Source: Escherichia phage Mt1B1_P17. From it: DNA of 64,000 nt. The stretch lies in sequence record NC_052662.1; one strand, written 5' to 3'. This document shows positions 1,035 through 14,301 of the stretch, one piece after another. The first letter of the stretch is position 1. Every line of letters starts with the position of its first letter. The notes under the pieces were generated by a model that saw only the letters and a program-made list of their open reading frames with translations, was not told where the DNA came from and did no database searches. Both the position numbers and the translations under genes were made by a program.

Positions 1035-1640
1035 ATGCAACATAGTGTAGTAGTCAACATGCCGAATAGTGGGGATAAATCTTTTGGTGTCCCTGCTAAA
1101 AAAGTGTGGAAAGCCCATTTTCATCTTACTTTATCTAACGTTAGTTCTGAAGAGTTGATGAAAGCAGCTAAGATTATTGGTGCCAAATGCACAACAATTG
1201 ATTTACATCGGGATACAAAGTCTCAACGTGATCGTATGTTAACAAAGTATCAAAGCGATCTCGACACTACTTTAATGTTGCAGTGTGTAGAAAAACTTGA
1301 GAATGCAGGTTTCAATGTTGTTCGTTACAAACTGGAACGAATGTTTAAACATGTTGCCTGTGTTCTTTTCATGGATCTAAGTAAAGAAAATTACGGAGAA
1401 GTTCACATTAAGACTTCAGCAAGTGATCCCGAAGTAGAAACAAACTTCTTCCGTATTTCTTCTAATGCTGAAGAAATTGATTACCGATTTTATAATGCTC
1501 GCTTATATTCCGCAGAAGATAAGTTGCGTTTCAATGAAGCGTATGATATGCTCTTGAACAGTGGGATACAGATAAAAGGCTACCACATAGAACAAGTGGT
1601 AGTGGACAGTAATCTTAACTTAGACGCATGGTGGGCTTAA
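1035..1640 (+). CDS. Hypothetical protein, 201 aa
   Basis: ORF with GAGGAGA RBS; one HxTx-like motif (HLTL) but no convincing second one, so a 2H phosphoesterase call is not supported. Confidence 0.5.
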   Translation: MQHSVVVNMPNSGDKSFGVPAKKVWKAHFHLTLSNVSSEELMKAAKIIGAKCTTIDLHRDTKSQRDRMLTKYQSDLDTTLMLQCVEKLENAGFNVVRYKLERMFKHVACVLFMDLSKENYGEVHIKTSASDPEVETNFFRISSNAEEIDYRFYNARLYSAEDKLRFNEAYDMLLNSGIQIKGYHIEQVVVDSNLNLDAWWA

Positions 1641-1641
1641 T

Positions 1642-2298
1642 ATGACTATTAAACATATCTCTTTTGATGTATGGAACACACTGATCACAGCAAACTCCAA
1701 TTACGCAGACATGCGAGCCTGGACTATCGCAAAATATGGAGATATTACGGAAGTGGAAGCAAGAGCAGCTTATAAAAAGATCAAAAAGGAACTGGATAAT
1801 GCAGCACTTCAAGGCAAAGCCGAGTGTGCAGCATACGCCTGGGAAAGACTTGGTTCTGAACTTGGGATAACGCCTTGGAAGTCTGCAAAGCTTCGTTTCG
1901 AGTGTGAACAGTGGTTCCTTAAGTTTCCACCACACGTAGCCGTGGATCTGCCGATGTACTTGCTGTATCTTTCAGGGCGTTATGATTTGAGTATTAAGAG
2001 CAATACCAACTTCATATCAGGGGATATCCTGCGTCGTGCTTGTAAGTTTGATAGTTGGAATTGTTTTGAGTTCACCCATTTCTCGGATGAAGCTTTACTT
2101 TGTAAACCAGATCCGCGATTCTTTGCTCGCACGCTCACGTATTCTCCGATCCCTCTGTTAGGGCACGAAGTGTTGCACGTAGGCGATAGTGAAGAATATG
2201 ATGGAAAATGTGTTGACTTAGGATTTAACTTCTGTCATATTAAGAACCCTAACGACTTACTAGAGAAACTTAAAAGAGGAGAAATTGTAAATGCGTAA
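1642..2298 (+). CDS. HAD-superfamily hydrolase-like protein
   Basis: Motif I-like FDVWNTL (second Asp replaced by Trp), motif III KPDPRFF, motif IV GDSEEYD. Confidence 0.5.
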   Translation: MTIKHISFDVWNTLITANSNYADMRAWTIAKYGDITEVEARAAYKKIKKELDNAALQGKAECAAYAWERLGSELGITPWKSAKLRFECEQWFLKFPPHVAVDLPMYLLYLSGRYDLSIKSNTNFISGDILRRACKFDSWNCFEFTHFSDEALLCKPDPRFFARTLTYSPIPLLGHEVLHVGDSEEYDGKCVDLGFNFCHIKNPNDLLEKLKRGEIVNA

Positions 2299-3118
2299 TC
2301 AAACTCAAATTTTTGCAAATAAATTTGATGACCTGGAAACTGCTACTTTTGATATCCAAGATTATTCAAAATTAAAATTTGGTAGTAACCAAGCTGCGCG
2401 TCGTATGGGTAAAGAATTAGCACTTCAGTTTTTTGCTCAAGTGGCAATGAAACATATTGGGGAACAATTTGTTATCATTCCTTCTCCTTATAACCATGTG
2501 CATAATGCTGCAACAATGATGACAGATCATTTTATTAATTATTTTAATATGTTGCAATCACAATATGATCAAGGTCGTTCAGCAGAACTGGACATTATTC
2601 ATCGTAAAGTTAGCTATATCAACGATTATGGTTTCTTGGATAAAGCTAGTCGTAAGAAACTTATTGATGGGGATACATTCTACTGCAACAAAGAATTCTG
2701 GGGTGATAAGAAGCTTGTATTCATTGATGATGTAAATATCACTGGAACGCATGAAGACAAACTGATTGAGATCCTTGATGAAAATCAAGTTAAAAATGAT
2801 GTTTACTTCTTGTATTTTGCAAAATACGAAGGTAATCAAGCAGATACCGAAGCTAAACTGAATTTTAACTACATTAATACACCAGAAGCGTTTGTTAAAA
2901 TGATTAATGAAGAACGTGATGCACAGTGTCTTGTTCGTCCTATTAAGTATCTTATGGGCCAAAATCATGAAGACTTCAAAATCATTCTTAGCCAATTGCC
3001 ACATTACTATGTAGAGCAACTTTTCTTTGGATGTTTGGGAGAAGGTTACAACCGAATTTCAAAGTATGCTGAAAACTTTGAATTCTTGGATCGTTACACA
3101 AAACAACACATTCTGTAA
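2291..3118 (+). CDS. Phosphoribosyltransferase-like protein
   Basis: PRPP-binding-type motif VFIDDVNITGT; start overlaps HAD gene stop by 8 nt. Confidence 0.45.
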   Translation: MRNQTQIFANKFDDLETATFDIQDYSKLKFGSNQAARRMGKELALQFFAQVAMKHIGEQFVIIPSPYNHVHNAATMMTDHFINYFNMLQSQYDQGRSAELDIIHRKVSYINDYGFLDKASRKKLIDGDTFYCNKEFWGDKKLVFIDDVNITGTHEDKLIEILDENQVKNDVYFLYFAKYEGNQADTEAKLNFNYINTPEAFVKMINEERDAQCLVRPIKYLMGQNHEDFKIILSQLPHYYVEQLFFGCLGEGYNRISKYAENFEFLDRYTKQHIL

Positions 3119-3132
3119 TAAGGAGCTAAAAA

Positions 3133-3606
3133 ATGCTTAAAATGAAAAGAGGTAATCTTATTGATGCCGCTAAAGCAGGTGAAGTAACTGTTATTGCTCA
3201 TTGTTGCAACTGTATGTGTAATATGGGGGCAGGTATTGCCCCACAAATCAAACAAGCATTTCCTTACGCATATGCAGCAGACTTAGACACAATGGCTGGT
3301 GATCAAAGTAAACTAGGTTGTTTTAGTTTAGGGGTGCCAGACGAACAATCAGACCCTTTGGTATATAATCTATACGGGCAATACCGTTACGGATACAATG
3401 CTAAAGGTCGTCAGTTGGACTATGATGCACTTTACGATGCACTAATAGCTATGGCTAACGATTTGCTTCTCCGTGACCAAAAATGTAAGATCGGCTTACC
3501 TATGATTGGCGCTGGATATGCTGGAGGTAATTGGGCTATCATCCAAGTGATGATTGAAGAAACTTTAGTAAAAACAGGTCACGATGTGACTATTTATAAA
3601 CTTTAA
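3133..3606 (+). CDS. Macrodomain protein, TARG1/OARD1-like
   Basis: AHCCNCMCNMGAGIA and LPMIGAGYAGGNW...VTIY segments resemble TARG1 as recalled from memory. Confidence 0.65.
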   Translation: MLKMKRGNLIDAAKAGEVTVIAHCCNCMCNMGAGIAPQIKQAFPYAYAADLDTMAGDQSKLGCFSLGVPDEQSDPLVYNLYGQYRYGYNAKGRQLDYDALYDALIAMANDLLLRDQKCKIGLPMIGAGYAGGNWAIIQVMIEETLVKTGHDVTIYKL

Positions 3607-3843: not shown

Positions 3844-3871
3844 TTGACATAGTTCTTAAAAAGAGTAAGAT
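3844..3871 (+). promoter_or_regulatory. Putative sigma70-like promoter upstream of TerC gene
   Basis: TTGACA, 16 nt spacer, TAAGAT. Confidence 0.35.
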
Positions 3872-3919: not shown

Positions 3920-4894
3920 ATGCAACTTGGTTTCCCAATTATTGATGTAGTTGTTTTAGTTGGTATTTTAGCATTGTCTATTGGTATTGATTTCTTTGGT
4001 CACAAAGAAAATAAAGAAATTTCATTCAAATCCGCAGTTGGTTGGTCGATCTTTTGGATTGGTGTATCATTAGCTTATTATGGTTTTGTATACTTCCAAC
4101 ATGGTGCCGATTTTGCTAACTTGTTTTTAAGTGGATATGTGTTGGAAAAATCTTTGTCGGTAGATAACTTAGTAGTATTTGTAGCAGTATTCGCAAGTTT
4201 TGGTATTAAAAGCACACACTTGCAGCACAAGATTCTACTTTGGGGTATTGCAGGTGCGATTGTCTTCCGAGGTGTGTTTGTAGCAGTAGGCACTTACTTG
4301 TTAAGTTTGGGCTGGTATGTTAATATCTTCTTCGGTGCGGTCATCCTTTTCTGTGCAGCTAAAATGGTATTTGCTGGAGATAATGACGCAGAAGTTGATT
4401 ACTCTAAACACTGGGCTACCCGTATTGTTCGTAAACTGTTCCCTGTATCTAATAAAATGGATGGGGAGAAGTTCTTCACAATCGAAAATGGTGTTCGTGT
4501 AGCAACTCCAGCTTTGGTTTGCGTATTCGTGATGGAAATGGTTGATGTAATCTTTGCAGTAGATTCTGTTCCGGCAGTGATCGCAGTAACACAAGAACCT
4601 CTGCTTGTATTCTCTTCGATGTTATGTGCAATCTTAGGTCTACGTGCTCTGTTCTTTGTTCTTAGTGTTGCACTGAAGTATCTGGTTCACTTGGAGAAAG
4701 CAGTTATTGTGGTTCTGGTGTTTGTAGGTGTTAAACTGATGTATCACCCGTTTGCAGAAACGTTACATGAAAAAATGAGCTTCCTGCCAGCGCACATTGA
4801 TCCAACTATTAGTATGTATATTGTCCTGGGCACATTAGCTCTTGGTGTTATTGCAAGCTTTATCTTCCCTGAAAAAGAAGAAGCTACTGTTTAA
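3920..4894 (+). CDS. terC: TerC-family integral membrane protein
   Basis: Multiple TM helices; signature segment YVLEKSLSVDNLVVF typical of TerC family. Confidence 0.7.
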   Translation: MQLGFPIIDVVVLVGILALSIGIDFFGHKENKEISFKSAVGWSIFWIGVSLAYYGFVYFQHGADFANLFLSGYVLEKSLSVDNLVVFVAVFASFGIKSTHLQHKILLWGIAGAIVFRGVFVAVGTYLLSLGWYVNIFFGAVILFCAAKMVFAGDNDAEVDYSKHWATRIVRKLFPVSNKMDGEKFFTIENGVRVATPALVCVFVMEMVDVIFAVDSVPAVIAVTQEPLLVFSSMLCAILGLRALFFVLSVALKYLVHLEKAVIVVLVFVGVKLMYHPFAETLHEKMSFLPAHIDPTISMYIVLGTLALGVIASFIFPEKEEATV

Positions 4895-4900
4895 TAAATG

Positions 4901-4925
4901 AGCCTCCTTCGGGAGGCTATTTTAT
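4901..4925 (+). terminator. Rho-independent terminator
   Basis: Hairpin AGCCTCC-TTCG-GGAGGCT followed by ATTTTAT. Confidence 0.6.
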
Positions 4926-4936
4926 AGGAGAGACTT

Positions 4937-5287
4937 ATGAGTAATTTTGATGAAATTCAAGAACTTGTTTGGGATTTATCTGGTGATGTGGATTACATTT
5001 CAGATTATCTTTCAAAAGTTTACCCTGGGGTAAGCGTTATGATTGTGACCAAAGATCCAATTAATTTGCCTCCTAATGTTGTAGCTTGTTGTGGAAGTGG
5101 TTCAGGAGAAGTAGAGCCTGTATCTCGTTGGGAATTAACTAAAGCTGTTTCAAAACGAAGCGGTGAAGTTTTGAATATTGATATTGAGCAAATATGGACT
5201 TCTCCAGCAGCCAAATGGAATGATCCAAATGGTTGGGATTTGTTCTTCTGGGATAATGAGACTGATGATGAGGTGTTTTTAAAATGA
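4937..5287 (+). CDS. Hypothetical protein
   Basis: ORF, 116 aa. Confidence 0.45.
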   Translation: MSNFDEIQELVWDLSGDVDYISDYLSKVYPGVSVMIVTKDPINLPPNVVACCGSGSGEVEPVSRWELTKAVSKRSGEVLNIDIEQIWTSPAAKWNDPNGWDLFFWDNETDDEVFLK

Positions 5288-5529
5288 AATACTTGTTGGT
5301 TGTGTTTGAAAATATCTGTTTTGCAATAGGGTTGTTTGTTGTAATTTTTGTATTGACAAGCGTAATCAACGGCAGTAAAGTGAGTTTATACCGAGATGGA
5401 GAGCAACTTTATTGCTTCTCTGGAGATTTCAAACACAGATGTATTAATAGCCAAAACGAGGAAAGCAAATATGAAAAAACTAGCCCTGATTTTAATTGGT
5501 TGTATCTTTTTAACAGCTTGCGAGGATGA
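5284..5529 (+). CDS. Hypothetical small membrane protein
   Basis: ORF with hydrophobic N-terminus; overlaps the lipoprotein gene start, so one of the two starts may be wrong. Confidence 0.25.
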   Translation: MKYLLVVFENICFAIGLFVVIFVLTSVINGSKVSLYRDGEQLYCFSGDFKHRCINSQNEESKYEKTSPDFNWLYLFNSLRG

Positions 5530-5908
5530 AACAAATCCTGCACAATACCAACAACCTCCTCAACAATACGCTCAACAAGGATCTGACGGAGATACAACTA
5601 TTATCAACAATGGTGGCGGTTCTAGTAGTAGCGGTGTTGGTGAGTTTGCTACAGGTATGTTGTTAGGGCATATGATGAGTGGCGGTAGTAATCGTAGCAG
5701 TGGGGATTATAACGATAACAGAACGATTATTAATAAGCATTATAATACACCTAAACCGAAAACTAATTTTTATGGTAAGCCTAAACAAGAGATAAAAACT
5801 TATGAAAAGCCGAGACAAACTTTTAAAACAAATAGTAGCTATACAACTCGTAAATCTTACAATAGCCCTTTAAGTAAAAAGAGTTCATCTCGTAGCAAGC
5901 GACGTTAA
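5471..5908 (+). CDS. Lipoprotein, low-complexity
   Basis: MKKLALILIGCIFLTAC signal peptide with lipobox; RBS GAGGAAAG; Gly/Ser-rich then basic tail. Confidence 0.45.
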   Translation: MKKLALILIGCIFLTACEDETNPAQYQQPPQQYAQQGSDGDTTIINNGGGSSSSGVGEFATGMLLGHMMSGGSNRSSGDYNDNRTIINKHYNTPKPKTNFYGKPKQEIKTYEKPRQTFKTNSSYTTRKSYNSPLSKKSSSRSKRR

Positions 5909-5922
5909 TAAGGAGAAAAACA

Positions 5923-6516
5923 ATGACAATTTCTATTCGTACTTCCATTACAGGTGTTAAAAGTTTGCCTAATGCTTTGCAAATCACACGTGCTTTGAGG
6001 GATACGTTCTCTGCTGTGGATGAGCATAAGATGCTCGATAATCTCTCAAATTGGCCCTATTTCCATTATTTTAAAAATGAAGACGACGAGTTTATAGACG
6101 CTGTTTCTTACGGTTATGATTTCGGTAAGGAGGTTTCCCCTGAAGAATTTGTAGCTACGGTGTTCCCAAACGGTTTGCCTACTCGCAGTAAACGTAAAAA
6201 AGGACCAAAAAACAAGAAACGTGCTACTAATAAAGCTACCATTTTCTTTACTGATGGCACACAATATACGATTAAAGATTTTGAAGAGGTATCTTATACA
6301 GCAGGTGGGAGTCTTTCTTTCTACACCATCAAAAAACAAAACTATACGTTCAGCCATGTTTCTAACATGATTGAAATGTTAGTAGAAGATATTGAAAGCG
6401 TGGCTGTGTTAGGTATGCATAAAAGCTTTTTAATTACAAATATTTCAGATTTCAGTGCAAGTTTATCTGGCCCTGATTTTGAAGCCACGACCACGCATTT
6501 CGCTTTTAAGGTGTAA
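5923..6516 (+). CDS. Hypothetical protein
   Basis: ORF, 197 aa; basic KRKKGPKNKKR patch. Confidence 0.45.
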   Translation: MTISIRTSITGVKSLPNALQITRALRDTFSAVDEHKMLDNLSNWPYFHYFKNEDDEFIDAVSYGYDFGKEVSPEEFVATVFPNGLPTRSKRKKGPKNKKRATNKATIFFTDGTQYTIKDFEEVSYTAGGSLSFYTIKKQNYTFSHVSNMIEMLVEDIESVAVLGMHKSFLITNISDFSASLSGPDFEATTTHFAFKV

Positions 6517-6519
6517 GTT

Positions 6520-7110
6520 ATGCATACCGAGAGAGACTTGCAACTCTTGTGGTGGGAAGTGATGCAGGAAATAAAAGAAGATTTTCCTGTTTACTACAAC
6601 ATGTTACGTGAAGCAGGATATAAAGCTTGTGTTAGAAACAAAGTGAATAACTCTTTCGGTTGGTGCAACTACCGAGATAAAATTGTTGTTGTAAATTGGC
6701 ACTTGCATAAGAACTCCACAAGAGATATGATCGTGGATACAATGAAGCACGAAATTGCTCATGCTATTGATGGTTGTATGGGTAAGTTTAGTAGACACGG
6801 TGCTCATTGGCAAAAACTGGCAGCAGAGTTAGGGGCTAATCCTAAAGCCACTTCCAAAGAGCCGTTGAACCACGAATATAAATATGTTCTTGTTCTGGTA
6901 GATAGGTTTGCGACAAGATGTGTTAGAGGTTATAATCGTAAACCTAATCGCATGTACCCAGGTAAGCAACCTAATATGTGGTTGAAATCAGATAAAGAAG
7001 GGACCGAAGGAAAATTATGGTTGTATAAATGGGACGATTGGGTTAAAGTAGCTAAAGAGTACGGTGTTTCACCATATATAAGAGATGCAGAAGAGGAGAA
7101 TGAAGAATGA
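6520..7110 (+). CDS. SprT-like zinc metallopeptidase
   Basis: HEIAHAI (HExxH) followed by GAHWQKLAAELGA, typical SprT-like arrangement. Confidence 0.55.
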   Translation: MHTERDLQLLWWEVMQEIKEDFPVYYNMLREAGYKACVRNKVNNSFGWCNYRDKIVVVNWHLHKNSTRDMIVDTMKHEIAHAIDGCMGKFSRHGAHWQKLAAELGANPKATSKEPLNHEYKYVLVLVDRFATRCVRGYNRKPNRMYPGKQPNMWLKSDKEGTEGKLWLYKWDDWVKVAKEYGVSPYIRDAEEENEE

Positions 7111-8219
7111 CAAGTCCATTTTTAAAAGCAGCTACTGGCGGTCAGAAGAAGCCTGAAATGAGCGTATTTGCTGCAACAACAGATGCAAGTAAATCTGTAT
7201 TCGCTCCAAGCGTGTTAGATGCCAGTCCTGTTTATGCACCAGCGGCACCGCAAGAAGTTCCAGTTTTGCCTTCTATGACCCGACAAGAGATCGAAGAGAT
7301 TGGGGCAGAGGCAGGAACAACCTTGCGTTCCTTGAATGCCGAGGTGTTAAAACATCAACGTAGTAATCAAGGCGATCAGATGAGTGAACGACTCACAGCT
7401 TTGATTAAACAGGCAAAACAACTTGATCCAAACTCTATTAAACAAAGCAAAGGTATTACTAAACTCATTAAAAAAGTTATGGGTATGAAAGAAGACCTGT
7501 TCGGGGAGTTTGATAATGTTAATAACCGTATTGAAGAGTTGGTAAAGAACCTTCAAATGGATATTCGCAAAGAAGAAGATTCCTTGGTATATCTTGAAAA
7601 GCTACATCAAGCTATTGGACAATATGCTGCAAGTTTGAACCGAGATATGCAGCTTCTAACAGCAACCTATGAAAAAGAAGAACAAGCTTTGGCTGCTCTT
7701 CCAGAAGATGCAGTAGAACAGCGACAAGTGATCCGAGATACTTTGGATCTCTTGGAGATTCGTATTGCAGATTTAAAAGCATTGCGCCTACTGTGTGTCC
7801 AAATGGGACCGCGTGTACAAGGTATGCAAAAAGTTTCTGCAAGCTTAATGCGATCTGCGCGTAACATAGTAAATAATGTTATTCCTGCTTACTCTGCTAA
7901 CTTCTCAATGTATATCGAGAGCTTACGTCAAATGAAAGCAGCAGAGACGCAGAATAACGTTCTTGATGAATTTAACCTGGCAATTAAACTGGGTAGCGAT
8001 CTTGCCACACAGAATCAGATCGAAGCAGCAGCACTGGCTAACCGTCAAGTGTTGGATATTGAAACTCTGCGTCACGATCAGGAAAACTTGGTTAAGATGT
8101 TGGAAGAAACTAACCGCATCAATACGGAAGCCCGTGCTGCTCGTGTTGATTATATTAATGAAGTTCAATCTCTGGAAGACGGGATGGTAGCTGCTGTGAA
8201 ACGAGGGCTTGGTAAATGA
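7107..8219 (+). CDS. TelA-like (toxic anion resistance family) protein, tentative
   Basis: About 370 aa, largely helical/coiled-coil, size and composition fit TelA; no unique motif confirmed. Confidence 0.35.
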   Translation: MTSPFLKAATGGQKKPEMSVFAATTDASKSVFAPSVLDASPVYAPAAPQEVPVLPSMTRQEIEEIGAEAGTTLRSLNAEVLKHQRSNQGDQMSERLTALIKQAKQLDPNSIKQSKGITKLIKKVMGMKEDLFGEFDNVNNRIEELVKNLQMDIRKEEDSLVYLEKLHQAIGQYAASLNRDMQLLTATYEKEEQALAALPEDAVEQRQVIRDTLDLLEIRIADLKALRLLCVQMGPRVQGMQKVSASLMRSARNIVNNVIPAYSANFSMYIESLRQMKAAETQNNVLDEFNLAIKLGSDLATQNQIEAAALANRQVLDIETLRHDQENLVKMLEETNRINTEARAARVDYINEVQSLEDGMVAAVKRGLGK

Positions 8220-8416
8220 GAATCCGTATCTATATAATTGATGAGGACATTGGTGTCCGTTATGATGACGAAAAACGATTCGCGCCGATGGGAGGTATAT
8301 ATCCCCCAAGTGTTCTAGCAGTTTGTCGTGATTGTTATATTTATGAAGGTTGTCGTAACTTCCGTAAATTCGAACTCCTTGCAGATATTGACTTCAATGA
8401 GGAGGAGGAGGAGTAA
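8216..8416 (+). CDS. Hypothetical protein with acidic C-terminus
   Basis: 66 aa ORF ending EEEEE. Confidence 0.35.
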   Translation: MRIRIYIIDEDIGVRYDDEKRFAPMGGIYPPSVLAVCRDCYIYEGCRNFRKFELLADIDFNEEEEE

Positions 8417-8589
8417 TGAAAATACTACGAGTGAATATTGAAACTGCTTGGTGTGGATGCAATGAGGTTGTGGATATCGAAATTGAAGATGATATGTCTC
8501 AAGAGGATATAGAAGATCTTGCACACGAAACCTTTCAGGATTATTGTAATTACGGGTTCCATATTTTAGAGGAGGAAGAAGATGTATAA
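8416..8589 (+). CDS. Hypothetical small protein, 57 aa
   Basis: ATG overlaps previous stop (TAATG); below the ORF-track size cutoff; found by manual translation. Confidence 0.3.
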   Translation: MKILRVNIETAWCGCNEVVDIEIEDDMSQEDIEDLAHETFQDYCNYGFHILEEEEDV

Positions 8590-8980
8590 TCCAACAGGTA
8601 TTCTTTTAAAACTTACAGTAACAGACCCTACTCTTTTCACTAAGTTAGCAAGTGGTGAAGTTTATGAAGTAATGAAAGATGGTGACGGTTGGTGTTATCT
8701 TTGTGGCTACTTCCTCTGTGATGCAGAAGAGTTAGAGTCCATTGTAACTAAAGGTTTTTATGAAGAACCAGGGTTCCGTGTGGAAACTACGCAGAAACCT
8801 GATACCATTACGCTGACTCGACAGGAACTGATCACAATCATTGAAGATGCTTTTATTGATGGCTGGAATACACAAGATAATGACTGGGGTGGACCCGAAG
8901 CTTTTCTGGAACATCATAAAGCTTATGGAGAATTTTGTGAAACCACTGTAGCTCTTGATAATCTGAAGGAGGGTTTGTAA
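8582..8980 (+). CDS. Hypothetical protein
   Basis: ORF, 132 aa; RBS GAGGAGGAAG. Confidence 0.45.
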   Translation: MYNPTGILLKLTVTDPTLFTKLASGEVYEVMKDGDGWCYLCGYFLCDAEELESIVTKGFYEEPGFRVETTQKPDTITLTRQELITIIEDAFIDGWNTQDNDWGGPEAFLEHHKAYGEFCETTVALDNLKEGL

Positions 8981-9543
8981 TGGGTTGTTTTAGCTTTTTG
9001 TGCAAAGAATCGGGCAAAGCTGCCCTTTCTACTTCTTTCGACGGATCACCTTGCTACCTCTTTCTTTTGAAGGACGGTGTTGTTATTGAAGAGATGTATG
9101 GCAACTATGATAGTTATGGTTGTGTTTTCTCTGGAAAGGAGGATGAAAATGGTGTTCGTGAACGATTTGAATGGGCTATGGATTGGAGTAAGGTTTGTGA
9201 TTTGATGCATTCCTCAAATCCAAGGGACGGTATCGCTATGGTGCTGGAAGAGTACTTTACAGGTGAAATCCCTACAGAACAATCTGACGGAGATCCTAAC
9301 CAAGGTTGGGGTGATGGTGAAGAAGATCCAGATTGTTTTTTCAGCACAGAAAAGAATAAGTTTAAACGTGTTGACAACCCTTATCACAAAGTGCATAATA
9401 CTCTCATTGAAACAAAAGATGACAAGATGGAAATTGAAGAAGATGATCCTCTTGTAACACTTCCTATAAGTGAGTTACAAAAGATCACTAAGGAAGCTTA
9501 CGATTTGGGCTTCAAAATTGGTAGAGGAGGTATGCGTGTTTAG
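8980..9543 (+). CDS. Hypothetical protein
   Basis: ORF, 187 aa. Confidence 0.45.
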   Translation: MGCFSFLCKESGKAALSTSFDGSPCYLFLLKDGVVIEEMYGNYDSYGCVFSGKEDENGVRERFEWAMDWSKVCDLMHSSNPRDGIAMVLEEYFTGEIPTEQSDGDPNQGWGDGEEDPDCFFSTEKNKFKRVDNPYHKVHNTLIETKDDKMEIEEDDPLVTLPISELQKITKEAYDLGFKIGRGGMRV

Positions 9544-9814
9544 ATTCAATATTCAAGAAGAAAAAAGTCAGGATTTACCTATTGCTTTCGAAGATCTTGA
9601 CGTAGGGGCCACATTCATGTATTATGATGCCTATGAAGACGCAGGGTTGGATACCTACCGTAACTTGGTGTTCATTAAAAATTCCACAAACAGTGCGATT
9701 TGTATTAATGGATCACTAGCACAACGAGGCTATACTCATTGCATCCCACCAGATACAAATATGGTGGAAGTAGATTTAGAAGTTACCAATATTACACTTA
9801 AGAAGGAGAAATAA
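9536..9814 (+). CDS. Small protein, paralog A of duplicated cassette
   Basis: GTG start 7 nt after GAGGAGG; homologous to 10836..11105 (shared DLDVG.TF and C-terminal ITLK). Confidence 0.45.
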   Translation: MFRFNIQEEKSQDLPIAFEDLDVGATFMYYDAYEDAGLDTYRNLVFIKNSTNSAICINGSLAQRGYTHCIPPDTNMVEVDLEVTNITLKKEK

Positions 9815-9815
9815 T

Positions 9816-10610
9816 ATGTCCGAGAAAATCAGCCTGAAAAAACGTCAAGAAAACCTTGCTTTCTCTCTGAAAAAGAATAAGAACCTGAATGAAGGTAAGA
9901 TTGTTCTTCGTGTAGCATGTGCTCTAGATATTTCTGGTAGTATGCATGGTCTATATTCTAGTGGGGTAGTGAGTGATTTTGTAGGTAAACTGCTTCCTTT
10001 TGGTATGCTGTTCGACGATAATCAACAAATTGATATGTGGGCCTTCAATACGAGTTCCCAAGAGCTTACTCCAGCAACAGCAGACGTTTACGATGACTAT
10101 GTTGGTAAATGTATGCGTAATGTTCGTATCGGAGGTGGAACAAATTACGCCCCTGTAATGGCAGATATCTACGATGAGTATTTTGGCACTGTTACCAAAT
10201 ATATTACCACTAAACAAGTGGTACAAGAGGAGGCTCCAAAGAAAGGCTTCTTTAATCGTCTGCTTGGTAAAACTGAAACAGTGTCTGTAGAGCGTGAAAA
10301 AGTTGTAGCTGTATCTGAACCAGGTGCTGACGTTACCCCTGGTGTTGTATTCTTCCAGACGGATGGTGAGAATGGTGATCCTAGTGCTGTTCGTCGTCTT
10401 ATTGAAGAGAATAAGAATAAACCTATTTATTGGTTCATGGTTGGCGTTGGTAATGAGAAGTTTGGGTTCCTGAAAGAACTGGCAAATGCTTATGATAATG
10501 TTGGTTTTATTGGCATTAAAGATTTAGACTTGACAGATTCAGAGCTTTATGACAAACTCTTATCTGAAGAGTTCGGAGAGTGGGTTGTTAAAGTAGGTGC
10601 TAAAAAATGA
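9816..10610 (+). CDS. von Willebrand factor A domain protein (TerY-like)
   Basis: MIDAS DISGS, downstream GGGTNYAPV and FFQTDGENGD motifs; N-terminus KISLKK like TerD proteins. Confidence 0.6.
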   Translation: MSEKISLKKRQENLAFSLKKNKNLNEGKIVLRVACALDISGSMHGLYSSGVVSDFVGKLLPFGMLFDDNQQIDMWAFNTSSQELTPATADVYDDYVGKCMRNVRIGGGTNYAPVMADIYDEYFGTVTKYITTKQVVQEEAPKKGFFNRLLGKTETVSVEREKVVAVSEPGADVTPGVVFFQTDGENGDPSAVRRLIEENKNKPIYWFMVGVGNEKFGFLKELANAYDNVGFIGIKDLDLTDSELYDKLLSEEFGEWVVKVGAKK

Positions 10611-10855
10611 TCGACGAGCTTGCCTCTCAAGTCATAGAAAATTATTGGCGCGAGAGAGAAGCTTTCATTATGCGCAGTCTCAAAGAGTATTTCATTGGGA
10701 CTGTGCGAATGGAAGATATTGTAAGTAGAGTGGAGATTCATGTATGGCCCGATTATGAAGAATGGGTTGACAAAGAAAATGAAAATGCTATAATTCTTCG
10801 TATATACAAACCGGAGATAACATTAGGAGGAAGAAGTGTTAAACTTCGAAATTGA
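10607..10855 (+). CDS. Hypothetical protein
   Basis: ORF, 82 aa. Confidence 0.4.
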   Translation: MIDELASQVIENYWREREAFIMRSLKEYFIGTVRMEDIVSRVEIHVWPDYEEWVDKENENAIILRIYKPEITLGGRSVKLRN

Positions 10856-11105
10856 TGAGCAAAAAGTAAATAAACGATGCCTTACCATTAAAGATTTGGA
10901 TGTAGGAGATACTTTCGTCTATGAAAATGCATTTGACGAAAATGGTTTAGACCTTAGTGAAATCATTGTTTATTTAAAAGTAGATGATGGGGAAAATGAT
11001 TATTCTGCTGTAGAACTAAACCATCATGCACAATTAGTATCAATCCAAAACACATCTAAGCTTTTGGAAGTAGAATTGACTGTAACTGGTATTACACTTA
11101 AATAA
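10836..11105 (+). CDS. Small protein, paralog B of duplicated cassette
   Basis: GTG start after AGGAGG; homologous to 9536..9814. Confidence 0.45.
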   Translation: MLNFEIDEQKVNKRCLTIKDLDVGDTFVYENAFDENGLDLSEIIVYLKVDDGENDYSAVELNHHAQLVSIQNTSKLLEVELTVTGITLK

Positions 11106-11120
11106 TAGAGGAGACAAAAG

Positions 11121-11723
11121 ATGACTGATAAAATTTCCCTGAAAAAAGGCTCTAGCGAAAAAATTTCCCTGAAGAAAGTTGCTCCGGCTCTGAAAGAACT
11201 GCGCCTGGAATTCTCTTGGAAATCTGATTCTAAACTGGATCTGGATGTAAGTGCACTGGTTTGTCGTCACAATGCCGCTGGTAATCCTGAAATGCTGTCT
11301 GCACGTCATCTGGTTTGCTATGCTAACAAGTTTGATCCTGAACGTTCTACCTTCGCTGGTGACGATGTTCGTGATGGAACTGGCAGCATGGAGCAGATTG
11401 ATATTACTCTGGCTAAAATCTCTCCTGATGCACAAGAGATTGCCTTTGTTCTGACCATTGATGATGATACAGGTCTGAAACGTTTTGGTCATGCTTCTGA
11501 AGGTATGCTTAAAATCTTCGACTCCGAGCGCAATGTGGAAATTCTGGATTTTGACTTCCTGGCTCCTGAAGTAGCTGGCAACACAATCTGCCACGTGGCT
11601 TCCTTGGTTCGTGAAGATGGGGAATGGAAGCTGAAAGCATATGGTGTAGGTAAAGCTGGTCTGGATATTTGTGATGTGGTGATGGCCTTCGGTGGTAAAA
11701 AAGAATGGTATGAATGTCCATAA
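11121..11723 (+). CDS. terD: TerD-domain protein
   Basis: N-terminal KISLKK repeated twice; acidic segments FAGDDVRDGTGS and LTIDDD fit TerD Ca-binding regions. Confidence 0.6.
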   Translation: MTDKISLKKGSSEKISLKKVAPALKELRLEFSWKSDSKLDLDVSALVCRHNAAGNPEMLSARHLVCYANKFDPERSTFAGDDVRDGTGSMEQIDITLAKISPDAQEIAFVLTIDDDTGLKRFGHASEGMLKIFDSERNVEILDFDFLAPEVAGNTICHVASLVREDGEWKLKAYGVGKAGLDICDVVMAFGGKKEWYECP

Positions 11724-11741
11724 TAATTAACAAATGATTTT

Positions 11742-11761
11742 GAGGGGGAGAAATCCCCCTC
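11742..11761. repeat. Palindromic GC hairpin element, copy 1
   Basis: GAGGGGGA-GAAA-TCCCCCTC; near-identical copy at 30063..30080. Confidence 0.5.
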
Positions 11762-11790
11762 TTGCAATAAAGCCTCTATCGTGTTATACT
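11762..11790 (+). promoter_or_regulatory. Putative sigma70-like promoter
   Basis: TTGCAA, 17 nt spacer, TATACT, upstream of cell wall hydrolase gene. Confidence 0.5.
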
Positions 11791-11822
11791 AGAAATTCGT
11801 TAACTTAAAAAGGAGGCAAAAT

Positions 11823-12344
11823 TTGCTGATAAAAAACTTTGTAACAGTTGCGTTACTATCCTTAACTGCTTTTACATTTACACCTGTTGTGGCGAAAGCC
11901 GAAGCTGCAAACGTAAAAACCGCTAAAGTAGTTCACAAATGTACAAAGCAATATAATGATAAAATTCTATTAGCTTGTGCAATTTACGCAGAAGGTCGTG
12001 GTCTGGGTAAAAAAGGAATGAATGCCGTTGGGAATGTGGTAATCAACAGAAGAAATGATACCTACTTCCCTAACACAGTCAGAGGAGTCTTGTTCCAGAA
12101 AGGACAATTCTCATATGCGAAAACTTTTAACGTAACAGAGAAAGATAAGTGGCAGGAAGCAAAAGCAATAGCGGAGCGTTTACTTTATTTAGAGAAACAT
12201 TTTCCTGAATTGCGGTCTGTTTTAGATGTTACTAAAGGTGCTCTATACTTCAAGAAACGGAATATAAGGACACACTGGGAACGTGATATGCGTCTTGTTT
12301 ATCGAGATAAAGTGCATGGTTTCTATCTACCAAAGGGGAGTTAA
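11823..12344 (+). CDS. Secreted cell wall hydrolase, SleB-like (candidate lysin)
   Basis: TTG start after AGGAGG; signal peptide ending AKAEA; core CAIYAEGRG...VINRRND...GQFS. Confidence 0.55.
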   Translation: MLIKNFVTVALLSLTAFTFTPVVAKAEAANVKTAKVVHKCTKQYNDKILLACAIYAEGRGLGKKGMNAVGNVVINRRNDTYFPNTVRGVLFQKGQFSYAKTFNVTEKDKWQEAKAIAERLLYLEKHFPELRSVLDVTKGALYFKKRNIRTHWERDMRLVYRDKVHGFYLPKGS

Positions 12345-12345
12345 A

Positions 12346-12630
12346 ATGCAAGAAGATAATACTGTTGTTGTAGCAAGTTACCTGGTTGTCGGTCTTACCG
12401 AAGAAGACGTATACTACACCCGTAAGCATTTGGAAGCATACGCTACTTTGTTTATGGAAGATGAAAAGGATGTAGATAAATATAGCATTGATATGATCAA
12501 CGACAGTATTTATCCTTGTATGGTTCTTAAAGTAGATGCTGTGTTGTGGGAGCGTTTTGCAAGGACTCATGATGCTGTAGAATGCTCCGCAGTAATGTCT
12601 CAAAACAACATTTTAGGGGAGATTCATTGA
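12346..12630 (+). CDS. Hypothetical protein
   Basis: ORF from ATG after GGGGAG RBS; 94 aa. Confidence 0.4.
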   Translation: MQEDNTVVVASYLVVGLTEEDVYYTRKHLEAYATLFMEDEKDVDKYSIDMINDSIYPCMVLKVDAVLWERFARTHDAVECSAVMSQNNILGEIH

Positions 12631-12860
12631 TGGGAGAAGTCATTGAAGTCAATTTTCGCACTAAACAGAAAGTGCAAAAATATGTCGTTATTAAAAACAT
12701 TTGCGTTGTCTGCTTCAATACAGTAATATACGACTCACGACGCGGAGAAAACGAAAATGAACCTTACATTGAAATTTCTAAGAACAAAGGTCAATGTATT
12801 TGTAAGAACTGTGCAGTAGCTATTAAGGAGGTTGTAAATGAAAACGCTTGGGACCAATGA
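12630..12860 (+). CDS. Hypothetical Cys-rich small protein
   Basis: ATG overlaps previous stop; CVVC...CKNC pattern. Confidence 0.35.
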   Translation: MGEVIEVNFRTKQKVQKYVVIKNICVVCFNTVIYDSRRGENENEPYIEISKNKGQCICKNCAVAIKEVVNENAWDQ

Positions 12861-13029
12861 AACTGGCGAAATCTCTCTTCAAGAAGTGACAAACGACAAG
12901 CTGATTAAACTACGGGATGTAGCTCGTGACCATCTCCAAGAATCTTTTAAAGAATATATGGAAGCACGAGATCGTGTGATCCAGATTCAACAAGAAATGA
13001 TTAAACGTGGGATTGTAGCTGACAGTTAA
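12838..13029 (+). CDS. Hypothetical protein
   Basis: ORF with AAGGAGG RBS; 63 aa. Confidence 0.35.
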   Translation: MKTLGTNETGEISLQEVTNDKLIKLRDVARDHLQESFKEYMEARDRVIQIQQEMIKRGIVADS

Positions 13030-13045
13030 TATAACGGAGGGGAGA

Positions 13046-13609
13046 ATGATTTATTATATTACTCCCTATCTGACAGGAAATATCGGCAAGGCTATCAATA
13101 AAGCCATTGCCGTTCTTCCAGATGATAGTTGGGTGTGTTTAAGAGATACCGATACAATGTTCCTCCTACCTGATCAACCATCTATGCTTGAAGAGCTTGT
13201 TATGTCAAACCCGCCTTTTGATGTAATAGGTGCAACTTGTAACAGGTTAGGCAGTGGTTATCAGCTTTTCTCTAACCAAATTAACGATGATCCAGATATT
13301 CTAAACCATATAGAATATGCTAAGATTGCAAGAGAATATCATAAAGTGAGTGTTGAAGAAGTTCCTTTCGGAACACCTCTGGCAGGTTTCTTCTTGCTTT
13401 TTAGAAAATCATTGTGGAATGAAATTCCTTTCGAAGAAAAATCTATCCAATTCGACTTAATTTTCTCTCGCACTTTACATGAAAAAGGAAAGAGGTTAGG
13501 ATTGATGCGGGGAATGTATCTGTTTCACATTTACAGATTAGGTCAAATAAATCCTCAACGGTCTATACATCATTTATTACACTGTCATGATCACAGTAAA
13601 ACTATTTAG
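13046..13609 (+). CDS. Glycosyltransferase, GT-A-like
   Basis: DxD-type RDTDT and FFLLFRKSLW segment reminiscent of family 2 glycosyltransferases. Confidence 0.45.
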   Translation: MIYYITPYLTGNIGKAINKAIAVLPDDSWVCLRDTDTMFLLPDQPSMLEELVMSNPPFDVIGATCNRLGSGYQLFSNQINDDPDILNHIEYAKIAREYHKVSVEEVPFGTPLAGFFLLFRKSLWNEIPFEEKSIQFDLIFSRTLHEKGKRLGLMRGMYLFHIYRLGQINPQRSIHHLLHCHDHSKTI

Positions 13610-13617
13610 GAGAGAAA

Positions 13618-14301
13618 ATGGAAAATATTAAAATTGGAGTGGGTGTTATCACTGTAGGTGTCCGTCCACTTAAAGACTACCTTGTAACAGATCCACGTGC
13701 AGATTTTCGAGTATTCAACGATCCAGATCGTAAAGGTGTAGCTTATGCCAGGAATGAACTTATGCACCAGTTTTATGAAGAAGGTTATGATTATTGGTTT
13801 ATTTTTGACGACGATTGCTACCCAGTCATGGAGGGATGGGAAACATACTTTGTAGATCAAGCTGTCTCTGGAGGATGGGATTTCTTTGGTATGCCGGAGT
13901 ATTTCAAAGATAAAGTTGTTGGAAGCAAAGGAGAAGTTATTCTCTGGGAACTTGCAATGTGTCAATTTGCAATGTATTCTCGTGCCGTTGTTGAGAAGAT
14001 GGGTTATTTCCGTCCTTACACTCACGGCTATGGTTTTGAAGATGCTGAATGGGGACACCGTTTGCAAGCTGCTGGTTTGAATCATGGTATTCAGGCAACA
14101 CCTTGTCCACTTCGTATCATGGCTTATATCCACCCAGACGATGTTTTTGGAAACAACCCTATGCCTTTTGCTAATCTGACAAAAGAAGAGAAAGAAGCTG
14201 CTATCGGGATTAACTGGGAAGAATATAAAGCATCTTTAGAGGATATTAAAAATGGGAAAATCCGAATTTCCTATGAGGAGGCACTGGCACATGTCAAATA
14301 A
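13618..14301 (+). CDS. Glycosyltransferase, GT-A-like
   Basis: FIFDDDCYP (DxD) and GYGFEDAEW segments. Confidence 0.45.
   Translation: MENIKIGVGVITVGVRPLKDYLVTDPRADFRVFNDPDRKGVAYARNELMHQFYEEGYDYWFIFDDDCYPVMEGWETYFVDQAVSGGWDFFGMPEYFKDKVVGSKGEVILWELAMCQFAMYSRAVVEKMGYFRPYTHGYGFEDAEWGHRLQAAGLNHGIQATPCPLRIMAYIHPDDVFGNNPMPFANLTKEEKEAAIGINWEEYKASLEDIKNGKIRISYEEALAHVK

Follow-up and report, generated by a model that had tools for sequence, protein, structure and literature searches.

A glutamine-type macrodomain of the phage Tk.4/AdfM-Adpp family in Escherichia phage Mt1B1_P17, a candidate counter-defence hydrolase

The macrodomain gene and its setting

We analysed a gene of Escherichia phage Mt1B1_P17 that lies near the left end of a 64,000-nucleotide (nt) stretch of sequence record NC_052662.1, hereafter the window. 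An earlier reading made from the letters alone (the sequence-only reading) had placed an open reading frame (ORF) for a TARG1-like macrodomain at 3133-3606; the ORF was confirmed at that position on the plus strand and encodes 157 amino acids (aa). The protein is a macrodomain of the phage Tk.4/AdfM-Adpp family (PHROG 335) and thus a further member of a recently characterised phage family in which two proteins, T4 Tk.4 and Gary Adpp, have been validated experimentally. Judging from its residues, it is very probably an active hydrolase of C1'' substituents of ADP-ribose, with a glutamine in the active site where TARG1 has a lysine.

The source lineage is Phapecoctavirus, a group of phAPEC8-like Escherichia coli myoviruses with genomes of about 150 kb. 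Over the window region, identity to Escherichia phage vB_EcoM_ESCO37 is 99.6%; to phage tuntematon, whose complete genome served for gene searches beyond the window, it is 98-99%. Since the macrodomain gene sits inside a rightward block shared with nrdD/nrdG, a primase-helicase and DNA polymerase, an early (or middle) location is plausible. A ribosome-binding site, the Shine-Dalgarno-like AAGGAG, lies within the 14-nt spacer that separates the ATG from the stop codon (3116-3118) of the gene upstream. The coordinates of the gene, of its functional segments and of the surrounding features are collected in Table 1.

Table 1. Macrodomain gene, its functional segments and neighbouring features (positions in the window)
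Feature	Position	Strand	Basis or remark
Macrodomain CDS	3133..3606	+	157 aa, single domain; ATG 3133, TAA 3604-3606 (stop included)
Shine-Dalgarno-like AAGGAG	3120..3125	+	7 nt 5' of ATG 3133; read from sequence
His23-Cys24-Cys25-Asn26 codons ("AHxxN" loop)	3199..3210	+	alignments, homolog conservation
Gly32-Ala33-Gly34 codons (GxG ADP-ribose-binding loop)	3226..3234	+	alignments
Asp50-Gly62 codons (motif D50..T53..G56-D57..K60-L-G62)	3280..3318	+	alignments, homolog conservation
Gln83 codon CAA	3379..3381	+	aligned to catalytic Lys of TARG1 (K84) and DarG (K80); equals SCO6735 Gln85
Mobile loop YRYGYNAKGRQ codons (residues 84-94)	3382..3414	+	alignment; SCO6735-length, with R85/K91/R93
Gly126-Ala127-Gly128-Tyr129-Ala130 codons (phosphate-binding loop)	3508..3522	+	alignments
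201-aa protein (phrog_22504)	1035-1640	+	no Pfam/NCBIfam match; PADLOC AbiEi match
HAD hydrolase	1642-2298	+	weak Pfam HAD match; upstream of PRTase_3
ComF-like PRTase_3	2291-3118	+	Pfam E 2e-41; directly upstream of macrodomain gene
Small membrane protein, 73 aa	3619-3840	+	ORF, downstream of macrodomain gene
Promoter-like TTGACA-16-TAAGAT	3844-3871		just 5' of TerC
TerC/Alx-family membrane protein	3920-4894	+	E 3e-95 to TIGR03718
Terminator-like hairpin AGCCTCCTTCGGGAGGCT	4901-4918	+/-	GC-rich palindrome then T-tract; 7 nt after TerC stop
SprT-like metalloprotease-domain protein	6520-7110	+	Pfam E 4e-9; directly upstream of TelA, overlapping
TelA	7107-8219	+	
vWA-TerF-like protein	9816-10610	+	
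TerD	11121-11723	+	

Family and fold

The segments from which the sequence-only reading had recognised a TARG1-type macrodomain (AHC...MGAGIA and PMIGAG...W...IEE...VTIY) are all present: AHCCNCMCNMGAGIA (aa 22-36), PMIGAGYAGGNW (aa 123-134), IEE (aa 141-143) and VTIY (aa 152-155) align with AHCISEDCRMGAGIA, PRIGCGLDRLQW, IEE and ITVY of TARG1, respectively. Assignment to the TARG1/DarG class was borne out by both sequence and fold. A phmmer search against PDB sequences retrieved SCO6735 (E-value 2.5e-12), BT1257 (1e-8), Thermus aquaticus DarG (1.7e-6), TARG1 (2.8e-6) and Poa1p (1e-3). The Pfam Macro model PF01661 matches aa 23-135 just at threshold (E 1.3e-4; 22.3 bits for a cutoff of 22.0), and many homologs carry the PF01661 annotation in precomputed form. 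PHROG 335, labelled "phosphatase", matches with an E-value of 7.7e-54, and the CDD label for the family is Macro_Poa1p_like. An AlphaFold2 model built on an alignment of 56 homologs (pLDDT 94.6, pTM 0.90) was compared with the PDB using Foldseek, which ranked human TARG1 first (E 4e-12, TM 0.78-0.87), followed by BT1257, DarG, Poa1p and SCO6735; there were 219 matches at E <= 1e-3 and, among the matches listed, all are macrodomains. The G32-x-G34 and G126-x-G128 loops are conserved in the 56 homologs, the GxG motif being a hallmark of the macrodomain fold (PMC9503650).

With tblastn, relatives turned up in 2,921 records of phages, among them T4-like, rV5-like, Vi01-like, Felix-like, Pseudomonas and Vibrio phages. 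A distinct and smaller set, of 267 records, is made up of Lys-type DarG-like phage macrodomains such as PhiKZ gp104. In a neighbour-joining (NJ) tree, which is rough and without bootstrap, the phage family forms one clade that contains the window protein, SCO6735 and BT1257 are its sisters, and DarG and TARG1 fall outside; the clade of the window protein is sister to that of the Vequintavirinae.

The protein belongs to the same macrodomain class as DarG (Foldseek E 2e-10), retains the equivalent of DarG Asn22 and matches the PADLOC DarG model over its whole length (E 5.6e-10), although only positions 1-144 of the 329 in that model are covered. It is nevertheless not a DarG. With the NCBIfam antitoxin_DarG model it reaches 34.9 bits where 250 are required, the aligned part being aa 3-49 only. 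DarG has a second, DarT-binding domain which this single-domain protein lacks, and whereas DarTG operons have an adjacent DarT gene, the window gene is flanked by PRTase_3 and a 73-aa membrane protein, so that it stands as an "orphan". Finally, the catalytic Lys of DarG (K80) and of PhiKZ AdfM (K78) is Gln83 here. The job proposed for DarG and PhiKZ gp104 is likewise the erasure of DarT2 marks (PMC13309987).

Two phage macrodomains that are not orthologous, the Lys-type PhiKZ gp104 (PMC13309987) and T4 Tk.4 of the Gln type, were independently named AdfM. Transferring annotation from one clade to the other under this shared name would be misleading.

A glutamine-type active site

Residue correspondences were taken from pairwise HMMER and MAFFT alignments, three independent alignments being in agreement. 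Conservation was assessed over the 56 homologs, and 70 non-identical family members were additionally grouped by genomic context for comparison. The sequence-only reading had proposed an alignment to look for the catalytic Lys and Asp of TARG1/DarG macrodomains, and here its expectation fails: Gln83 stands at TARG1 Lys84 and DarG Lys80, and Ala130 at the catalytic Asp125 of TARG1. Because Gln83 and Ala130 replace this dyad, the alignments indicate that the protein does not use TARG1 Lys/Asp chemistry, even though no structure matches it better than that of human TARG1 (OARD1, PDB 4J5S; TM up to 0.87, identity about 25-29%). The label "TARG1-like" therefore does not imply TARG1 chemistry, and a common annotation shortcut is corrected.

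The Gln83 substitution is no sign of decay and does not imply inactivity, because Gln is common to the whole phage family, T4 Tk.4 included, and to the active enzyme SCO6735 of Streptomyces coelicolor (PDB 5E3B). At least 90% of the 56 homologs conserve Gln83, and the same residue occupies this position in T4 Tk.4, in the Vibrio phage protein and in cellular SCO6735 and BT1257. Although SCO6735 has neither of the two catalytic residues of TARG1, it is efficient in removing ADP-ribose from thymidine of DarT-modified single-stranded DNA and rescues E. coli from DarT; its mutants Q85A, Q85E and N27S are inactive, G128E is impaired, and its mobile loop has a DNA-binding role (PMC9411070). It is also the best sequence match of the window protein among solved structures, at 32% identity. 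The His, Asn, Gln and Gly residues of SCO6735 (H24, N27, Q85 and G128) are present in the window protein as H23, N26, Q83 and G128, which by alignment makes the site one of SCO6735 type.

The mobile loop is of equal length in both proteins. The Lys34 and Lys89 residues by which SCO6735 holds DNA correspond to Ala33 and Gly87, whereas the loop of the window protein carries R85, K91 and R93; it is the lowest-confidence part of the AlphaFold2 model (block mean pLDDT 82). SCO6735 further differs in being a cellular, DNA-damage-induced protein and in lacking the motif D50..T53..G56-D57..K60-L-G62, which every context group of the phage family keeps invariant and which is not found in BT1257, DarG or TARG1 either.

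His23 (Poa1p His23) and Asn26 (DarG Asn22, Poa1p Asn26) are invariant in the 56 homologs and in all context groups, and functional data exist for their equivalents (PMC9411070, PMC13309987). The residues identical over all context groups, Adpp type and T4 included, are H23, N26, C27, G34, A36, D50, T53, G56, K60, G62, N79, Y81, Q83, Y97, G126, G128 and W134. Position 30 varies, with Asn in the window protein, Thr in most members and Arg in Adpp; it corresponds to Ser30 of yeast Poa1p (PMC12846349), an ADP-ribose-1''-phosphate (ADPR-1''-phosphate) phosphatase. Poa1p (PDB 6LFQ) resembles the window protein in fold (Foldseek E about 1e-8) and in its His and Asn, but its sequence match is weak and partial (aa 7-92).

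A putative eraser of DarT2 marks

The protein would act as a free-standing macrodomain hydrolase that cuts the group on C1'' of the distal ribose and releases free ADP-ribose. By the SCO6735-type mechanism, Asn26 would position Gln83, Gln83 would hold the ring oxygen of the ribose, and a water molecule held by the backbone would carry out the chemistry. During infection the host toxin DarT2 would put ADP-ribose on thymidines of single-stranded phage DNA, and the macrodomain may strip these marks so that phage replication continues, as an orphan antitoxin like T4 Tk.4/AdfM. We give this role, drawn by analogy with relatives, a probability of about 0.5; both the substrate and the phenotype are inferred in this way. 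A phosphatase activity on ADPR-1''-phosphate, as in the relative Adpp, is probably retained.

The idea of the sequence-only reading that a phage enzyme here reverses ADP-ribosylation as an anti-defence measure finds experimental backing in SCO6735 and in T4 Tk.4. On a DarTG2 host, HIDEN-SEQ yielded the latter as its one hit; it was named AdfM as an anti-DarT factor, and its clean knockout makes T4 DarTG2-sensitive (bioRxiv 10.1101/2025.11.20.689424). Tk.4 and the window protein are both single-domain proteins of about 155 aa with 34% identity (BLASTP, E 6e-21), and both have the motifs AHxCNC..MGxG, NLYxQ (Gln for Lys) and P(R/M)IGAG..GNW. They differ in the mobile loop, shorter by five residues in Tk.4, and in context, Tk.4 lying in the tk-vs region; the anti-DarTG2 phenotype is established for T4 alone.

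The likeness extends to the rest of the genome. NADAR proteins are AdfN-type erasers of DarT1 marks, and T4 pairs AdfN with AdfM (PMC11825919). Outside the window, tuntematon carries a NADAR gene (18632-19144 of L090, minus strand) whose product shares 36% identity (E 2e-24) with a NADAR from a jumbo phage. Like T4, the window lineage thus combines a NADAR with a Tk.4-type macrodomain, the latter being the only macrodomain in the window and in the complete tuntematon genome. In a 206-kb jumbo-phage contig (L045), an island of Nudix, Nampt, NADAR, macrodomain, HAD_SAK_2, dCMP deaminase, SIR2 and Prs genes was found at 4568-14058; its macrodomain is 51% identical to the window protein, and NADAR lies directly upstream with its stop abutting the macrodomain start. 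About 20 related contigs look alike.

DarT2 erasure is consequently backed by the presence of the residues tested in SCO6735, by kinship with T4 Tk.4, by the whole-length PADLOC DarG match and by the long basic loop. The NADAR gene of tuntematon, the position of a NADAR gene directly upstream of the macrodomain gene in the jumbo-phage relatives and the failure to find NARP1 genes (see below) point the same way. Given that tuntematon has no NARP1 genes but, like T4, has NADAR, the DarT2-eraser role appears the most likely one, and it is the better supported one, in line with the inference for T4 Tk.4 and the biochemistry of SCO6735.

Several points weigh against it. For the orthologs of Phapecoctavirus and Vequintavirinae the role rests on analogy with relatives, and the T4 evidence, reported in a preprint, is purely genetic. 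The window protein is nearer to the phosphatase Adpp (40% identity, E 3e-34) than to Tk.4 (34%). The DNA-binding Lys34 of SCO6735 is Ala33 here, and no sequence feature tells an eraser from a phosphatase. About 33 of 80 related loci adjoin NAD+ salvage genes, so that metabolite processing may be the main job of the family.

The family, present in about 2,900 phage records, was assigned two incompatible-looking functions within months, anti-DarTG2 as AdfM and anti-aRES as Adpp. A member that keeps all catalytic residues but has no NARP1 partners offers a clean test of bifunctionality. Additionally, phAPEC8-like phages are therapy candidates against avian-pathogenic and other E. coli, and a likely DarTG2 eraser together with a NADAR gene helps host-range prediction. 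As a counter-defence candidate the protein is real but fairly ordinary.

A possible phosphatase role and the genomic context of relatives

The closest validated relative is Adpp, gp137 of Vibrio phage Gary, encoded between Adps and Namat. It converts ADPR-1''-phosphate, which RES-domain NAD+ phosphorylases such as the defence aRES make, into ADP-ribose, a step which lets NARP1 rebuild NAD+, and the anti-aRES effect requires all three of Adps, Adpp and Namat (bioRxiv 10.64898/2026.01.28.702374). An Adpp-like metabolite phosphatase that would help NAD+ restoration against aRES-type defence is thus the first alternative to DarT2 erasure. The ortholog from Cilsick, 98.7% identical to Gary Adpp and used as its stand-in, is the one with which the window protein shares 40% identity. 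The two types have identical active-site residues and differ at position 30 (Arg in Adpp, Asn in the window protein), and the PHROG and CDD labels also speak of a phosphatase or of Poa1p.

To place these relationships in context, we compared 80 IMG/VR loci whose macrodomain proteins are 41-89% identical to that of the window. Clear Adps and Namat genes were found at six, and Nampt-like and/or Prs-like genes lie within 8 kb at about 27 more. The macrodomain protein of the NARP1 cluster of Pseudomonas phage M5.1 is 47% identical to the window protein. However, tblastn searches for Adps and Namat (two queries each) in the window and in the complete tuntematon genome returned none (best E > 0.1). 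The metabolite-processing role proven for Adpp (NARP1-AP) therefore involves other partner genes, not found in the window phage. Without NARP1, dephosphorylation of ADPR-1''-phosphate alone would not restore NAD+ in this phage, and ADP-ribose alone is not known to lead back to NAD+ in E. coli. Taken together, an Adpp-like function seems rather unlikely as the biological role.

Neither residues nor phylogeny separate the two functions. Among the 70 members grouped by context, no residue distinguishes phosphatase-type from DarT2-eraser-type proteins, the active-site positions being identical and position 30 merely variable. The NJ tree does not resolve function either, as T4 Tk.4 is interleaved with NARP-associated clades. 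One could imagine a dual-purpose Gln-type counter-defence enzyme which uses the same site on the phosphate of ADPR-1''-phosphate and on the thymine N-glycosidic bond made by DarT2, partner genes alone setting its role in each phage. Under such a scheme, which we consider speculative and unlikely, phAPEC8-like phages might in addition feed free ADP-ribose into an as yet undescribed HAD/PRTase_3 route linked to Ter-like membrane genes.

The adjoining HAD, PRTase_3 and Ter-like genes

The sequence-only reading had alternatively proposed a processor of ADP-ribose-derived metabolites tied to the adjacent PRTase and HAD genes. In its fuller form, the macrodomain would be the operon partner of HAD and the ComF-like PRTase_3, perhaps also of the Ter-like genes, and would supply or process a metabolite derived from ADP-ribose or phosphoribosyl, within a novel pathway related to nucleosides or NAD. 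All these genes are co-directional, HAD and PRTase_3 overlap by 8 nt, and gaps of 14 nt and 12 nt separate the macrodomain gene from PRTase_3 and from the next gene, respectively. This tight packing is compatible with co-transcription of HAD, PRTase_3 and the macrodomain gene, which is probable. A scan for promoters and terminators bounding the operon gave site counts not above shuffled expectation; of the terminator-like sites in the first 9 kb, the hairpin after TerC alone is convincing, and none occurs before position 4901. The order HAD-PRTase_3...macrodomain...TerC...TelA is moreover kept in five diverged viral contigs, in which macrodomain identity is 48-89%.

HAD-PRTase_3 is itself a fixed two-gene module, HAD first and ends overlapping, which we found in 155 phage records. 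It recurs at 36-51% identity in distant Xanthomonas, Rhizobium and Brevundimonas phages, with a Nudix gene 250 nt downstream of it in the Rhizobium phage, a point in favour of the operon-partner reading. However, none of these three distant phages has a macrodomain within 7 kb on either side of the module. Conversely, only five of the 80 macrodomain loci have the HAD-PRTase_3 pair, in the same arrangement with TerC and TelA as in the window, and the nearest sister lineages (L009, L015-19, Vequintavirinae) keep the macrodomain gene without the pair. Between PRTase_3 and the macrodomain gene the spacing is also variable, 14 nt at the least and about 950 nt at the most, other genes being inserted there. 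Because each is widely found without the other, the tie is unsupported: functional coupling was rejected on co-occurrence, and an operon-partner function is improbable. PDB sequence searches with PRTase_3, HAD and the 201-aa protein yielded nothing informative.

Within the block of replication and nucleotide metabolism, four Ter-like genes (TerC/Alx, TelA, vWA-TerF-like and TerD) sit no more than 8 kb apart. TelA, vWA and TerC genes also occur near the macrodomain gene of Pseudomonas phage M5.1. PRTase_3 was reportedly defined by Anantharaman, Iyer and Aravind in 2012 as a Ter-operon-associated phosphoribosyltransferase (PRTase).

The 201-aa protein encoded upstream of HAD matches PADLOC "AbiEi" antitoxin models over nearly its full length (E 4.7e-13 and 4.4e-12). 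Its predicted structure (pLDDT 82.6) is a two-lobed ferredoxin-like fold with invariant H28, H30, T32, H124 and K126. Identification as an AbiEi antitoxin was rejected, the PADLOC match being uncorroborated by Pfam, NCBIfam or fold. A 2H phosphodiesterase was likewise discarded, the predicted fold having no 2H phosphoesterase match.

Other ADP-ribose-related functions

The macrodomain could also clean up ADP-ribose by-products made by the phage itself, either O-acetyl-ADP-ribose or protein/RNA ADP-ribosylation arising from a Sir2-like enzyme, or Appr-1''-p arising from RNA repair. TARG1-class enzymes deacylate O-acetyl-ADP-ribose, and the JGI label of the homologs points to this activity. A Sir2-family gene is indeed present in tuntematon (24757-25380 of L089, plus strand), outside the window, and Sir2 also occurs near the macrodomain gene, with HAD_SAK_2, in the jumbo-phage relatives; in tuntematon, however, it lies about 98 kb from the macrodomain gene. 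As for RNA repair, an RNA ligase 2 gene (Rnl2) is found 1-2 kb downstream of the macrodomain gene in about 12 of the 80 loci, all Vequintavirinae-like, but neither Rnl2 nor Tpt1/KptA was found in the complete tuntematon genome, nor Rnl2 in the window, and the RNA ligase 2 linkage was consequently set aside for this phage. T4-type RNA repair is not known to make a 2'-phosphate and hence gives no Appr>p, and the upstream gene suspected of coding for a 2H phosphodiesterase is not one. A clean-up function is therefore very improbable.

Least probable of all is a non-catalytic binder serving as a sponge or sensor for His-ADPR or cyclic ADPR isomer signals: the TARG1 Lys/Asp pair is lost, macrodomains can be readers and the ThsA macrodomain binds His-ADPR, but SCO6735 and Adpp are active enzymes with this Gln-type site, and Asn26, Gln83 and Gly128 are strongly conserved.

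The window's right end carries eight clustered tRNA genes (Met, Ile, Pro, Gln, Gly, Thr, Asn and Ser), at 62209-63650 on the minus strand.

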